64,000 nt of DNA, from the NCBI RefSeq assembly GCF_054482525.1, contig NZ_CM137006.1; one strand, given 5' to 3'. The notes under the pieces are model-generated. The model searched no databases and was not told the origin of the DNA. It saw only the letters and a program-made list of their open reading frames with translations. The translations under genes were made by a program, and so were the position numbers. Of the stretch, positions 39,903 to 45,892 are shown in pieces (the first letter of the stretch is position 1; every line of letters starts with the position of its first letter).

Positions 39903-40657
<755 letters not shown>

Positions 40658-40761
40658 ATCAGCATACTTGTCCTTAGCCTTCTGCAGTGACAGCTGGTAG
40701 TACAGCGTGCTTCTGGCCAGCCCTGCAGCCTTTAACAGGTCAGACTGGCAGTGTCCGCACC

Positions 40762-41292
40762 TCAGGCTCCGGATGACTTTCGTTTTTTCTCCAGCTCCTG
40801 GCGCTTTTTTTCCAGGAGATGCTCCTGCATGGCTTTCAGATATGCATTTTCTGCGCGAAGATAACGCAGCTCATTCTTCATCTCTTCCGGCGTCATGTTT
40901 GCCTCGTTTTCATGGGTATCATCAGAACGGGTCATGCTTTTCTCCTTCCTGCGCCTGATAAAGGCCTCATTACCAGATTTGCGGTAGCCTTTTATCCAGT
41001 TTTTAACCGTGTTGTGGCTGGGAATGTTAAACCGGGCAGCTACCCGGGGTAGAGACTCAGAATGCCCGAGAGCATAAAGAACCACGCAAAGTTTATCTTC
41101 AGGAGAATAGCTACGCTTGTGTCTGCAATCCAGTGCCCGAGGACCGTGAAGAAGAAAAAGATTAATCCAGTGTGAGAGGCTGGTGTGAGAAAGTTGAAAG
41201 AGTTTTGCCGTAGAAATGATGCCTGCATGACCAGCCAGGTAGTGATTTACAGCGGCAAGTTTTACTTCAAATGAATGTTTCATAAACTGCAC
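40762..41292 (-). CDS. IS3-family transposase OrfA (HTH plus leucine zipper)
   Basis: 176-aa ORF; ends over ggaaaaaaagcg (A7G) frameshift motif near 40805-40815. Confidence 0.8.
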   Translation of the reverse strand: MQFMKHSFEVKLAAVNHYLAGHAGIISTAKLFQLSHTSLSHWINLFLLHGPRALDCRHKRSYSPEDKLCVVLYALGHSESLPRVAARFNIPSHNTVKNWIKGYRKSGNEAFIRRRKEKSMTRSDDTHENEANMTPEEMKNELRYLRAENAYLKAMQEHLLEKKRQELEKKRKSSGA

Positions 41293-41334
41293 CTTCAGAT
41301 GTCAGATTATGTCCAACATTTGGGGTGCAGTTCA

Positions 41335-41440
41335 GTTTACGCCGCATCCGGCGGTTATGCGCTGATGCCTGATGCGGCGCGGGCGCGTCTTATCATGCCT
41401 GGAAGTCTGCGCCCGAATCGTAGGCCGCCTCCGCTATATT
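41335..41440. repeat. REP/BIME cluster, right part
   Basis: gtttacgccgcatccggcg..., gcctgatgcggcgc..., cgaatcgtaggccg: several REP-like units. Confidence 0.65.
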
Positions 41441-41456
41441 AACTGGCATTGGCAAA

Positions 41457-41819
41457 TTACTCGTCACTACCTTTATTCATGTTTTTTTGGTCTTCATCCG
41501 GATAATGTTTTTTTAGATATTCCAGGACGTTTTTATTGACCTTGTGTTGCGTATACACCCACCCTTTCCAGTAATCAGGCTGGTCCAGGTAAACTTCTGG
41601 CGGAATGGTGAAATCAGAAAGCGTTAACCATTCGGCTAACAGATCGGGGTTTCGTTTCTGGATTAACTGCAACAGCATAATCAGTGACATAGCTGAGGCA
41701 GGAGCCGTACTATCACCACTCAAATATTTCCACACTGTTGACCGGTTCGAACGAAAAAGGATCGGTAGCAATGCCCGGTCCAGATTCATTTCATTAAAAA
41801 TCTTCTCAAATTCATTCAT
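41457..41819 (-). CDS. hypothetical protein (120 aa), not in K-12 map
   Basis: ORF MNEFEKIFNEMNLDRALLPILFRSNRSTVWKYLSGDSTAPASAMSL...; AT-rich context; divergent from the adjacent outer-membrane protein gene. No function assigned. Confidence 0.5.
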   Translation of the reverse strand: MNEFEKIFNEMNLDRALLPILFRSNRSTVWKYLSGDSTAPASAMSLIMLLQLIQKRNPDLLAEWLTLSDFTIPPEVYLDQPDYWKGWVYTQHKVNKNVLEYLKKHYPDEDQKNMNKGSDE

Positions 41820-42167
41820 TTAAATTTTCCTGCCTGGCGTAAACCTCTTAAAAATTGAGATTTATCAAAGAAACGCATTTTAGCACACATCAGGAACCGC
41901 TTCACGTTTAGTCCAGAAACAGAATTTATTTCGCTTATCAAAACAAGTCTTTACTCTTTTTTACATTGAAAGAGCACAAAATGATTTTCTATTTTATTTA
42001 TATAAGAAACATTTTTTGTTTCTTATTGGTGGTGTTTACGCTTACACCAAACAAAAATGCGCTTTACATCACACAAATGGCGGCGTAGATTTCGATCAAA
42101 TTGCAACGCAGATTAATTCTTATAACAACGTTTTACGTTGCTTATAGAAACAAATATGTGACTTACT

Positions 42168-43601
42168 TTGAAAGAGAAAAAATGCATGAAAACTGTAAAG
42201 CTGTCTTTACTGGCTGTCGTTGTTGCTACCGCGGTAAGTCCATCTGCGTTTGCGGGTGATACTGTTGAGGCGGCAACGACAGAATTAACGGCAATCCAGC
42301 CAGGAATGTCGCAATCGGAAATTGATCAGAAAATTGGTCGATTTTTAGAAAGGACAGGGAATAGTGCAGCCGCACAAAATTATCTGATTGCGCATGATTA
42401 CCGGACAACGACACCTCAGGAAAATACAGCTGCTTCTCCCGTACAGCCCACCAATACGCTGAACCCGATAACCAATCAAGCGCAGACCGACCGCGACAAC
42501 GGGCAGGATACCGCCATTCAGGACGCACAACATGCCGCCAACTGGGCTTCAATGAAAGCTGATGACGCGCAGCACGCCATTATGGTGGCGCAGACGGATA
42601 TTGATGCCAATAAAGCCGCCATCGCCGACACCCGTAATGATGTCTCCGCAGTGCAGTCAGACGTCACCAACATAAAAGGCGATGTCGCACATGCCCAGTC
42701 AACGGCTGACCATGCCAACGCTAACGCCAACGCCGCTCTGATGAACGGCGTCAAACTTTCCGGTGCTGTGACAGAAAACAAAAATAATATCGAACAGAAC
42801 CGCAGCGATATTGCTGACCAGCAGCAACAACTCGACGAAACCCGGAAAACCGTTGCCGCCACCGGTGATGTACAGACTGCCGCCCGATATCAGAGCATGA
42901 TTGACGCCAGACAGACTGCTGCTGCCAATGCGCAACAGGAACAAGCGGACACCCAGCAGCAACAAATGGACGATCAGCAGAAACAAATCGACGCGACGCA
43001 AAAAACGGTTTCCGCACTTGGCGATGACCAGACCAACGCACATTATCAAGAGATGGTTAACGCCGAACTGAGAGCACAAAATGATGCGAATGCGCGTACT
43101 GCAGCAGAACAAAAACAAAAAATAGATACTCTGGCGACTAACCAGGCAACACAACAGCATATCGATAGTGTGCAGTACGGGGAACAAATTCAGCGTCTGG
43201 CGCAAGACTCAACACAAACGCATGAACAAATTGACAGCCTGACACAAGACGTAACCCAAACGCATCAGCAGTTAAGCAACACGCAAAAACGAGTAGCGGA
43301 TAATAGCCAGCAGATTACTACGCTCAATAACCATTTCAGTTCGCTGAAAAACGAAGTTGAGGACAACCGTAAAGAAGCCAATGCGGGAACTGCATCAGCC
43401 ATCGCTATCGCCTCACAACCACAGGTGAAAGCCGGTGACTTTATGATGATGTCAGCGGGAGCGGGAACCTTCAACGGTGAATCTGCGGTGTCTGTCGGAA
43501 CATCTTTTAATGCCGGAACGCATACCGTGATTAAAGCCGGTGTCTCTGCGGATACGCAATCTGATTTCGGCGCGGGTGTCGGCGTGGGATATTCTTTCTA
43601 A
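42168..43601 (+). CDS. putative secreted coiled-coil protein with YadA-like C-terminal membrane anchor (trimeric-autotransporter-like)
   Basis: Signal peptide (MKTVKLSLLAVVVATAVSPSAFA; start may be 42186), Gln/Ala-rich heptad-like central region, C-terminus ...AGTASAIAIASQPQV...GESAVSVGTSF...IKAGVS...GVGVGYSF resembling the YadA anchor (4 beta-strands ending in aromatic residue). Confidence 0.6.
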   Translation: MKEKKCMKTVKLSLLAVVVATAVSPSAFAGDTVEAATTELTAIQPGMSQSEIDQKIGRFLERTGNSAAAQNYLIAHDYRTTTPQENTAASPVQPTNTLNPITNQAQTDRDNGQDTAIQDAQHAANWASMKADDAQHAIMVAQTDIDANKAAIADTRNDVSAVQSDVTNIKGDVAHAQSTADHANANANAALMNGVKLSGAVTENKNNIEQNRSDIADQQQQLDETRKTVAATGDVQTAARYQSMIDARQTAAANAQQEQADTQQQQMDDQQKQIDATQKTVSALGDDQTNAHYQEMVNAELRAQNDANARTAAEQKQKIDTLATNQATQQHIDSVQYGEQIQRLAQDSTQTHEQIDSLTQDVTQTHQQLSNTQKRVADNSQQITTLNNHFSSLKNEVEDNRKEANAGTASAIAIASQPQVKAGDFMMMSAGAGTFNGESAVSVGTSFNAGTHTVIKAGVSADTQSDFGAGVGVGYSF

Positions 43602-43686
43602 TATTCCAATCCTCAATATAAATAAGAGCAAGGAAGCTTGCCGGGTTTCACCTCTTCATTAATTTGTACATTATTTAAGGTTAACA

Positions 43687-44109
43687 ATGATGAATAGCTC
43701 CATTAAATCGTTTTCCCTGCTGGCGGTTATATTACTGGCTGGCTGTAGTTCACCCACTTCCCGCATCGCAGATTGCCAGGCGCAGGGCGTCAGCCATGAC
43801 ACCTGTTATCTCGCAGAACAACAGCGTCAGACGGCTATTTTAAGTGCATCCGAGGCGCAGGCATTTAAAAATGCAGAAGCCGCACAACATGCCCAGGCCG
43901 CTAAAAAATCTATTTATAAAGGATTTGGCATGACCTTTAGAATGAGCAGTAAGAACTTTGCTTATCTCAATGATTCATTATGTGCAATTGATGAAGACAA
44001 TAAAGATGCCACTGTTTATCAGTCAGGTCTTTATAACGTCATTGTTTATCACCACACGGGAAAAGTCGCCTTAATGAAGGAAGGTCAGTTTGTGGGTTAT
44101 TTAAAATGA
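43687..44109 (+). CDS. hypothetical lipoprotein (140 aa)
   Basis: Signal peptide with lipobox LLAGC; several Cys; no recognised family. Confidence 0.55.
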   Translation: MMNSSIKSFSLLAVILLAGCSSPTSRIADCQAQGVSHDTCYLAEQQRQTAILSASEAQAFKNAEAAQHAQAAKKSIYKGFGMTFRMSSKNFAYLNDSLCAIDEDNKDATVYQSGLYNVIVYHHTGKVALMKEGQFVGYLK

Positions 44110-44309
44110 AGGAGCAAAGGAAAATCCCCCTGACGCATATTATGATTATCGGTGCGTTTATTTTTGCCTTCTTGCAAGTGGTGTTATTAGCCTCCCTGGT
44201 TCACGCTGTGAATGTTAACAACGAAATCCAGGAAGGCTTATTTCAATCGGGGCGCATAATGGTAGAAAGTTTGCAGCATATTCTTTCGGTGCAAACGGGG
44301 ATTAACTGA
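44106..44309 (+). CDS. hypothetical small membrane protein (67 aa)
   Basis: ATGA start/stop overlap with preceding lipoprotein gene; one predicted TM helix (IMIIGAFIFAFLQVVLLASLV). Confidence 0.45.
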   Translation: MKEQRKIPLTHIMIIGAFIFAFLQVVLLASLVHAVNVNNEIQEGLFQSGRIMVESLQHILSVQTGIN

Positions 44310-44312
44310 TTT

Positions 44313-44720
44313 TCACCCCGCCCGATGATGACAGCAGCCGGAGAGATTTTCGATAATCGGGCAGTCGGCGCTGTCATCACCAGGGCAGGCATTCGCCAGC
44401 GCCAGTAGCTGGTCGCGCATGGATTGCAGCTCCTCAATGTGCCGTTCGATCTCCGCTACCTTCTCCAGCGTGCGCCGTTTTACATCGGCGCTGTGACGCT
44501 GTGGGTCGTTAAACAGATTCACCAGTTCGCCGCTCTCTTCCAGGTTAAAGCCCACCTGGCGCGCCTGGCGCAGTAAGGTCAGTTCGTTGAGATGCTGCTG
44601 CGTGTAGGTTCGATAACCATTTTCGCTGCGCATCGGCGGCGTCACCAGCCCCTTCTCTTCATAGAAGCGAATGGCTTTGCTGGTCAGGCCGGTAATTTTT
44701 GCTACATCGCTAATGTTCAT
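44313..44720 (-). CDS. cueR: MerR-family copper-responsive regulator
   Basis: 135-aa [32 protein letters not shown]... with C-terminal metal-binding Cys pair (CPGDDSADC). Confidence 0.9.
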
Positions 44721-45892
44721 CGTTCGCGCAACGCCTCCTGTGCTTTATTAAAGGGTTTCAACAGATAATCCAGCACGCTTTTTTTGCCGGTGCGGATATC
44801 GACCGTCGCCACCATACCGGGGAATATCGGAAACTGCTGTTTATGTTTATTTTCCAGATGGTTGCTGAAAGTGCGAATGTACACCCGATAGTAATAAACA
44901 TCGCGCCGCACTTCATCCTGCACGGTGTCTGGTGATATCACCGCCACTTCTCCCGGCAGGCCGCCGTAGATGGAGTAATCGTAGGCGGTTATTTTCACCA
45001 GCGATTTTTGCCCCGGGTGGATAAACGCCACATCGCGCGGGGAGATTTTTGCCTCAATCAGCAGTTGCTCATCCAGCGGCACGATGGTCATCAGTTTACC
45101 ACCGGGGGCAATGACGCCGCCAACCGTGGTGACGTCAATGTCCTGAACAATGCCTCGCACCGGCGCGGTAAAGTTGAGCCTGGTGAGGGAGTCTTCCCGT
45201 CCACGGATCACCGAACGCTGGGTTTCTACTTCCGCATTGGCTTTCGCTAACTCTTCCCGCGCCTGTACGTAGTATTGCGTGCGCACGTCGCTGAGTTTGT
45301 TTTCCAGTTCATTGGCCTGGCGTTGCAGGCGCAGCACTTCAACGCTGCTCGCCGCCCCCTGTTTTACCAGCGGCTGGGTCATCGCCAGTTCGCGGTTGAC
45401 CAGGCTAATCCCCTGCGTCAGCCCGGTGGTGGCTTTGTTCAGCCCATCGCGGCGAGTGTTGTACAACGCCGTTTCCGACTCGATAAGTTCGGGGAATTTA
45501 TTCAGTTCGTCAGGGAAGACCAGCGGTTTATTACTCACTTCCGCCCGCAGCCGCGCCGAGGTTGCCAGCGCCGCGTACAGCCGCGACATTGCTTCCTGGA
45601 CGTCGGATTCCGTTTTGGTGCGGTTAAGCTGCGCCAGCGGCTGGCCCTGTTCAACAATATCGCCAACCTTGACGTCGAGATGATACAGAATTCCGCCTTC
45701 CAGCGACTGCACCACCTGTTCGCGCCCGGAAGGTTCTACCGTGCCGCTGCCGGTGGTGACTTCATCAAGCTGGAAGTACCACGCCCAGCCGAGAAAACAG
45801 AGCAGCATCACAGAGGTAACGCGTACCGCCAGCGCCGAACGCGGCAGGCGGGGTTCAGTCAGGCCACGGTTGTATTGCAGTTGTCCGTTCAT
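44717..45892 (-). CDS. type I secretion membrane-fusion protein (HlyD family)
   Basis: 391-aa ORF with N-terminal TM, long coiled-coil and C-terminal beta domain typical of HlyD/LapC; 4-bp overlaps with ABC gene upstream and cueR downstream. Confidence 0.85.

Follow-up and report, generated by a model that had tools for sequence, protein, structure and literature searches.

In a 64,000-nt stretch of DNA from contig NZ_CM137006.1 (the window), the gene for the copper-responsive regulator CueR begins within the stop codon of a type I secretion gene. How did a core regulator come to be joined to an adhesin export cluster, from where is it expressed there, and does the junction tie copper sensing to adhesion? 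The relevant features are as follows.

44313..44720, minus strand: cueR, Cu(I)-responsive MerR-family regulator, 135 aa (NCBIfam NF007590, 308.6 bits; cut-off 244)
44717..45892, minus strand: HlyD-family type I secretion adaptor gene (hlyD28/Z0635 type), 391 aa (TIGR01843, 327.6 bits; cut-off 208.65)
45889..48051, minus strand: type I secretion ABC permease/ATPase gene (hlyB28/Z0634 type), 720 aa (TIGR03375, 836.4 bits; cut-off 693)
48055..64000, minus strand: giant adhesin gene siiEA (BapA-related), 3′ 15.9 kb, running off the window (SCU-102 annotation)
44721..44816, minus strand: last ~96 nt of the adaptor gene, the sole upstream sequence of cueR and a non-coding scar in K-12-type genomes (megablast and alignments)
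44734..44739, minus strand: Shine-Dalgarno-like AGGAGG within adaptor codons (K-A-Q-E), 13 nt before the cueR ATG (read from the sequence)

The cueR junction and its distribution

The 135-aa product also exceeds the cut-off of TIGR02044 (207.5 bits against 147.4) and is 100% identical over residues 1–135 to the Escherichia coli CueR of PDB 1Q05, C112 and C120 included. Because this match holds from residue 1, the cueR start codon is correct, and a wrong start or an annotation artefact was ruled out as a source of the overlap. The adaptor matches TIGR01843 up to the final profile position, and the last 600 nt of its gene share 97.7% DNA identity with EDL933. It is encoded beside the type I secretion ABC transporter gene, whose product matches the LssB-type ABC model TIGR03375, and the gene for the adhesin substrate. 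The window is 99.99% identical to E. coli SCU-102 apart from a 1432-bp insertion sequence and three small differences; in SCU-102 the NCBI annotation gives a TolC-family gene, the BapA-related adhesin SiiEA, the ABC and HlyD genes, and cueR.

The minus strand across the junction reads ...GCGCGAACGATGAACATT..., that is, GCG CGA ACG ATG AAC ATT, with an ATGA at 44717–44720 that can be read directly from the sequence. The TGA at 44719–44717 closes the 391-aa frame (44717–45892) and the ATG at 44720–44718 opens the 135-aa frame (44313–44720). A second ATGA (45889–45892) links the 720-aa ABC gene to the adaptor gene, and the adhesin stop codon TAG (ending at 48055) lies 3 nt away from the ABC start at 48051. 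A preliminary description of this DNA had reported the stop/start overlap, and had placed adhesin, ABC, adaptor and cueR genes on the minus strand with junctions of at most 4 bp; both observations stand.

Four-nucleotide ATGA overlaps with termination–reinitiation coupling are a general feature of bacterial operons. The adaptor–cueR overlap has the same geometry, and the ABC–adaptor junction of the same cluster is another case, kept in other genera. Across the homologous 42 kb of strain SCU-102, genes on the same strand form 17 neighbour pairs, and 5 of these have overlaps of exactly 4 nt. As such, the overlap is an ordinary junction type and not more than would be expected by chance. Unlike the usual pairs of this kind, the adaptor and CueR are functionally unrelated and differ in origin, one belonging to an accessory island and the other being a core regulator.

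The cluster corresponds to O-island 28 (OI-28) of O157:H7 (tolC28-rtxA28/rtxB28-hlyB28-hlyD28; ecs0540–ecs0544; also the 'siiCA-DA' cluster), with the same locus and gene order. In EDL933 the adhesin is annotated as two 'RTX' ORFs, whereas the window carries one gene with a single frameshift: near 62970 one G is deleted relative to SCU-102, breaking a 7227-codon frame about 31% of the way in. The gene may truly be a pseudogene here, or the break may reflect a sequencing error. Pseudogenes of the adhesin also occur in EDL933, O145:H28 RM13514 and YDC107, where the ABC, adaptor and cueR genes are intact. OI-28 has been presented as an O157 acquisition that is needed for early adherence, with a type I secretion adhesin system that RstA and Ca2+ activate via a promoter preceding the TolC-like gene; this 2025 study makes no mention of cueR, the ATGA junction or the K-12 remnant described below (PMC12758282).

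The adaptor–cueR arrangement is found in 959 of 5426 complete E. coli genomes (~18%, about one in six), and the island is missing from the other ~82%, K-12 among them. Both 4-nt overlaps, adaptor–cueR and ABC–adaptor, are annotated in all six of the further diverse island-bearing E. coli inspected, and both are present in Escherichia whittamii and E. coli strain 99-3311. Escherichia sp. E1V33, whose locus begins inside the adaptor gene, has the adaptor–cueR overlap. The ATGA itself is identical in K-12, E. albertii, E. whittamii and six other E. coli. This adjacency is kept within Escherichia and not wherever the cluster occurs: in Enterobacter and Pseudocitrobacter, adaptor homologues with 84% identity, also 391 aa and ending in ...EALRER*, are the last gene of their own cluster, which lacks cueR and is followed by convergent genes.

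Origin of the fusion and the K-12 remnant

No adaptor gene was found upstream of cueR in 75 non-Escherichia Enterobacteriaceae loci. The visible neighbour is usually copA, divergent and about 108 nt away, with copA further off or outside the compared stretch in some of the 75. Alignment of seven of these species places the CueR operator, CCTTCC-N7-GGAAGG, so that it ends ~10 nt before the cueR start and is followed by an AAGGGGG ribosome-binding site. K-12 and SCU-102 have the same operator upstream of glsA, and their similarity to Salmonella ends right after ...GGTCAAG; therefore, in Escherichia, the glsA-ybaT-island block sits between the operator and the cueR ATG. The copA-cueR divergon of Salmonella, Citrobacter, Klebsiella, Enterobacter and relatives, taken as the ancestral state, shares the flanks (copA on one side, ybbJ-qmcA on the other) and the operator sequence with Escherichia but, unlike Escherichia, has no adaptor gene, glsA or ybaT between operator and cueR. 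It also lacks an extra variable block that lies between cueR and ybbJ in six annotated E. coli records and in the Escherichia loci compared, K-12 and SCPM-O-B-8794 excepted.

In this arrangement ~8 nt of the native cueR leader have been lost. The Escherichia adaptor gene ends at the same residue as its homologues, which use TAG or TAA as stop codons; in Escherichia the adaptor codons CGA-TGA share bases with the ATG-A of cueR. By these alignments, Escherichia cueR has no native promoter, leader or ribosome-binding site, everything upstream of it being adaptor coding sequence.

The preliminary description proposed a comparison of the window with the ybaT–cueR junction of K-12. K-12 has no ybaT–cueR overlap; the two genes are separated by a 124-nt spacer whose last ~96 nt align to the adaptor 3′ end, so that the junction is specific to this locus and arose before the K-12 arrangement. 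Eight substitutions and the loss of 1 nt from an A-run separate the remnant from the adaptor 3′ end; the ...GCGCGAACGATGAAC junction is identical. K-12 shares with the window an identical CueR protein and the last 26 nt before the ATG, ATGA included, but lacks an overlapping upstream gene, its spacer consisting of a broken ybaT terminator and the frameshifted ~96-nt adaptor remnant. Megablast homology starts at window position 44816 in every island-less genome among the matches listed. Strain WB61 has an in-frame version of the remnant, which PGAP annotates as a truncated pseudogene that overlaps cueR.

The K-12 remnant is adaptor-derived, because the adaptor genes of Enterobacter and Pseudocitrobacter, at unrelated loci, share its C-terminus and have similar DNA. 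Since the K-12 spacer carries the 3′ end of the adaptor gene, K-12-type genomes are deletion derivatives of the island-bearing arrangement and not empty sites. The left-hand side of the spacer agrees with this. In SCU-102, 11 nt after ybaT, a 10-bp GC-rich hairpin is followed by a T-tract (−16.1 kcal/mol, z = −3.6), which is a predicted intrinsic terminator. Of this hairpin K-12 retains the 5′ arm but, on the 3′ side, just 4 nt, and its sequence folds no better than shuffled sequence. By this alignment the island deletion also broke the ybaT terminator in K-12-type genomes.

An opposite polarity, in which the K-12 order of ybaT, spacer and cueR came first and some E. coli gained the island by a later insertion, would fit the absence of the island from 82% of complete genomes and the description of OI-28 as an O157 acquisition (PMC12758282). 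An empty site, however, cannot hold the last 96 nt of the gene that was inserted, in a form common to adaptor genes elsewhere, nor would it keep one half of a terminator hairpin found whole in island-bearing strains. E. whittamii and E1V33 moreover carry the island, and E. albertii has a scar. These comparisons already contradict an ancestral K-12 order, which we regard as extremely improbable.

The E. albertii scar is shorter and more diverged (~60 nt, the last 27 nt identical) and is preceded by a ybaT terminator that is still intact. Either, then, the fusion is older than the split of E. albertii and E. coli, or recombination has moved it. The E. albertii spacer gave no alignment to the tolC28 upstream region beyond the ybaT terminator. 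In SCU-102 (locus L003), the ybaT terminator at 10773–10795 is followed 10 nt on, at 10805–10818, by TAATTCAAATTTCC, which agrees at 13 of 14 positions with the published RstA box TAATTCAAATTACC of the tolC28 regulatory region.

The following sequence of events would account for these arrangements. In an ancestor of Escherichia, a block comprising glsA-ybaT and the tolC-like, giant adhesin, ABC and adaptor genes would have been placed between the CueR operator and the cueR ATG. The ATGA would be the right-hand scar of this old, base-precise fusion, which kept the natural last codon of the adaptor (…EALRER) and cost cueR its own promoter and ribosome-binding site. Later, the island would have been lost from ~82% of genomes, K-12 included, by a single type of deletion that kept the last ~96 nt of the adaptor gene. 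This deletion would have destroyed the ybaT terminator, leaving cueR to be read from a promoter inside ybaT. We consider this account of fusion and deletion, together with the expression of cueR in present island-bearing strains set out below, to be the best explanation of the locus and, taken as a whole, a probable one.

Transcription and translation of cueR

Among the entries for this region in a genome-wide start-site table for K-12 (PMC3415461 supplement), cueR has one start, 292 nt upstream and with 31 reads, and the neighbouring entries place no start in the scar. This start maps to position 6702 of the K-12 locus (L001), inside ybaT and 167 nt before the ybaT stop codon, behind a promoter with a −35 element TTGTGG, a 17-nt spacer and a −10 element CATGAT at −304 to −299 relative to cueR. 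The same promoter sequence is found in SCU-102, where it is followed by the intact terminator. Because the published start lies inside ybaT, and the terminator is broken in K-12 and intact in SCU-102, K-12 cueR appears to use a borrowed promoter made usable by the deletion. A ybaS-ybaT-ybbI operon predicted by Permina 2006 (PMC1526738) and the joint acid induction of ybaST and cueR (PMC9628877) both fit this account.

In island-bearing strains cueR is physically the last cistron of the cluster, on the same strand as the adaptor gene, with no intergenic base and no room for a terminator. No intrinsic-terminator-like site was found on the minus strand from 45661 to 44313. With no native upstream region, any cueR mRNA therefore starts inside or upstream of the adaptor gene, and sharing a transcript with the adaptor gene, or at the least with its 3′ part, would be physically unavoidable for cueR. 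The last 96 nt of the adaptor gene are probably without a promoter in these strains; if so, cueR mRNA begins inside hlyD28/hlyB28 or at the tolC28 promoter ~25 kb away. The sources of cueR transcripts would then be the PhoB/RstA-controlled promoter ahead of the tolC-like gene, weak promoters within the ABC or adaptor genes, or a combination of the two.

A scan of 44100–46100 for terminator-like sites, as a separate observation, returned seven weak hairpin-plus-T sites against 2.0 ± 1.5 expected, all with 5–7 pairs. Three of them, at 45822–45661, belong to the minus strand and fall within 230 nt of the start of the adaptor gene.

How far transcripts from the distant promoter reach can be judged from published expression data. 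In an rstA mutant the expression of each of the five island genes, hlyD28 among them, drops 3- to 5-fold, in a study that measured hlyD28 and not cueR (PMC12758282); this is evidence for long read-through. PhoB control of ecs0540–ecs0544 is attributed to Yoshida 2010 as cited in PMC3978041. In rpoS arrays of EDL933, ybaST, Z0608 and Z0609 are 19/70-, 55- and 20-fold RpoS-dependent, and Z0615, Z0634, Z0635 and cueR are not reported as changed (PMC2907692). As the distal genes go unreported in these arrays, read-through from the far promoter may be weak. The interrupted adhesin gene of EDL933, RM13514, YDC107 and the window should, in addition, exert polarity on the distal genes. No cueR or OI-28 entries were found in the supplements of PMC2760140, PMC6131387, PMC7815308 and PMC3978041.

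The proposal in the preliminary description that cueR is transcribed as the last gene of the adhesin operon therefore survives in part: cueR is the last cistron, no terminator precedes it, and it would share RNA with the 3′ part of the adaptor gene, but the EDL933 rpoS arrays do not report the distal genes as changing along with the proximal ones.

The overlap might instead be incidental, with essentially all cueR mRNA arising from a constitutive promoter in the adaptor or ABC gene, negligible read-through, and copper sensing not tied to the adhesin. The arrays, which list only proximal island genes as regulated, are in keeping with this, as is the frequent decay of the adhesin gene to a pseudogene while the ABC, adaptor and cueR genes remain intact; a sensor would also be expected to need a steady basal level. 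A consensus promoter scan and a position-weight scan detected no convincing sigma-70 promoter in the adaptor gene, with matches at background frequency. The genuine ybaT-internal promoter of K-12, however, scores only 6.6 in the position-weight scan, and the adaptor gene holds matches as good or better at −372, −167 and −128. The scans cannot decide the matter, because the real promoter scores no better than background matches. Several observations speak against such an internal promoter. The K-12 scar has no listed start site; synonymous-site variability along the ABC, adaptor and cueR genes (eight alleles) shows no dip that would mark a conserved promoter and no extra constraint at the adaptor 3′ end; and hlyD28 mRNA follows RstA, with nothing to stop it before cueR. 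We hold exclusive internal transcription to be possible, if somewhat doubtful, and give more weight to the reading above, in which the far promoter, internal promoters or both may supply cueR mRNA.

For translation, the AGGAGG at −19 to −14 has been kept by 13 of 14 Escherichia sequences, the non-coding scars of K-12 and E. albertii among them. Homologues outside Escherichia have CGCGAAG or CGAGAAG at this place (KARE as against KAQE). This conservation fits a role as the cueR ribosome-binding site, although 13 nt is a long spacing. Translation of cueR would start from an AGGAGG that arose within adaptor codons, and reinitiation at the AUGA may help but would not be required.

CueR is functional in K-12. 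The remnant upstream of it is frameshifted and has no credible start codon or Shine-Dalgarno sequence of its own. Coupling between adaptor and cueR translation, which the preliminary description had put forward, is allowed by the ATGA but cannot be obligatory, because K-12 CueR works behind this frameshifted remnant. RNA structure does not mask the start region either: folds of −100 to +40 and −40 to +30 are no more stable than shuffled sequences (z = 0.23 and 0.90), and an Rfam search found nothing.

A strict dependence of CueR amount on adaptor translation could nevertheless draw on the ATGA overlap itself, on the unfavourable 13-nt distance between the Shine-Dalgarno-like motif and the ATG, and on short reading frames in the scars. 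An open frame of 19–45 codons ending at the same ATGA is kept in all island-less lineages (5944–6004 in the E. albertii locus L009 and 6937–6997 in the K-12 locus L001), and in E. albertii it opens with ATG where the adaptor gene has GTG (MLNYLFRSPNKLQEALRER). Retention of such a frame is, however, within chance (about 0.4 to 0.6). A coupled leader peptide may still lie upstream of cueR in these lineages. With functional CueR behind the K-12 scar and no stable structure hiding the start region (z-scores 0.2 to 0.9), we judge obligatory coupling very unlikely and favour independent initiation at AGGAGG.

Copper sensing, adhesion and the flanks of cueR

The preliminary description had further suggested that the junction links a copper-responsive regulator to adhesin or biofilm expression. 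No CueR operator (CCTTCC-N7-GGAAGG, in a promoter with a 19-bp spacer) occurs in the island, and the sole perfect site is at the copA promoter (8320–8338 in the SCU-102 locus L003); the idea thus gains no support from the operator search. Matches with two mismatches number five in the window against 1.8 ± 1.4 expected, which we call chance level. We treat a regulatory link between copper sensing and adhesion as hypothetical and unproven.

A wider reading is that cueR has been adopted by three successive promoter contexts: the copA divergon; the adhesin-export operon under PhoB/RstA/Ca2+ control, for early Escherichia and for strains that have the island today, O157:H7 included; and, after the terminator-breaking deletion, the ybaT-internal promoter in the acid-resistance locus of K-12-type strains. 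CueR amount would then differ between pathotypes. We put this forward tentatively and consider it unlikely in its full form. If true, the set-point and switching speed of copper efflux would vary by pathotype, CueR amount would answer phosphate, Mg2+/Ca2+ or acid signals according to lineage, and OI-28 deletion mutants would be cueR expression mutants too.

OI-28 and its PhoB and RstA/Ca2+ regulation are already known, and junctions of this type are common. What we have not met in the accessible literature is a coherent account that ties together the fusion to cueR, the scar left in K-12, the damaged ybaT terminator and the promoter borrowed from ybaT. This account matters since cueR is a textbook regulator studied almost only in K-12, whose cueR upstream region is, on this evidence, a deletion scar and whose promoter appears to be borrowed. 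The ~18% of E. coli with the island, O157:H7 included, have a quite different cueR upstream context, and the setting of CueR levels may differ by strain. Deletions of OI-28 or hlyD28, as made in adherence studies, take with them all of the sequence from which cueR transcription and translation start, and altered copper handling could confound their phenotypes. More generally, the locus would be a case of a core gene captured by an accessory operon and later released.

Downstream of cueR, between cueR and ybbJ (41335–44312), lies a second variable block with a YadA-like adhesin, a 140-aa lipoprotein and a 67-aa ORF whose stop codon is 3 nt from that of cueR. K-12 does not have the block, but some other island-less strains (WB61) do. 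Adhesin islands thus flank cueR on both sides. Across eight alleles of cueR, third positions vary in 5 of 40 codons at the 5′ end of the gene but in as many as 23 of 40 over codons 61–100, the 3′ half of the gene being 44313–44540. This suggests a recombination boundary with the variable downstream block.

In O145:H28 RM13514 (4009–5232 of locus L085) and 99-3311 (2089–3312 of locus L097), a 1224-nt convergent gene for a 'hypothetical protein' abuts the cueR stop codon without a gap. An extra 1.3 kb in 99-3311 was considered as an insertion sequence upstream of cueR and rejected, as it is a gene downstream of cueR.

The 1432-bp insertion sequence that is absent from SCU-102 occupies 39903–41334 of the window. 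It is an IS3-family element with two transposase ORFs, is bounded by imperfect terminal inverted repeats (TGAACTGAACCCCAAA... and TGAACTGCACCCCAAA...), and lies within a REP-like palindrome (GCCGGATAAGGCGTTT|ACGCCGCATCCGGC), where its insertion duplicated GTTT. In size and target it resembles IS1397.
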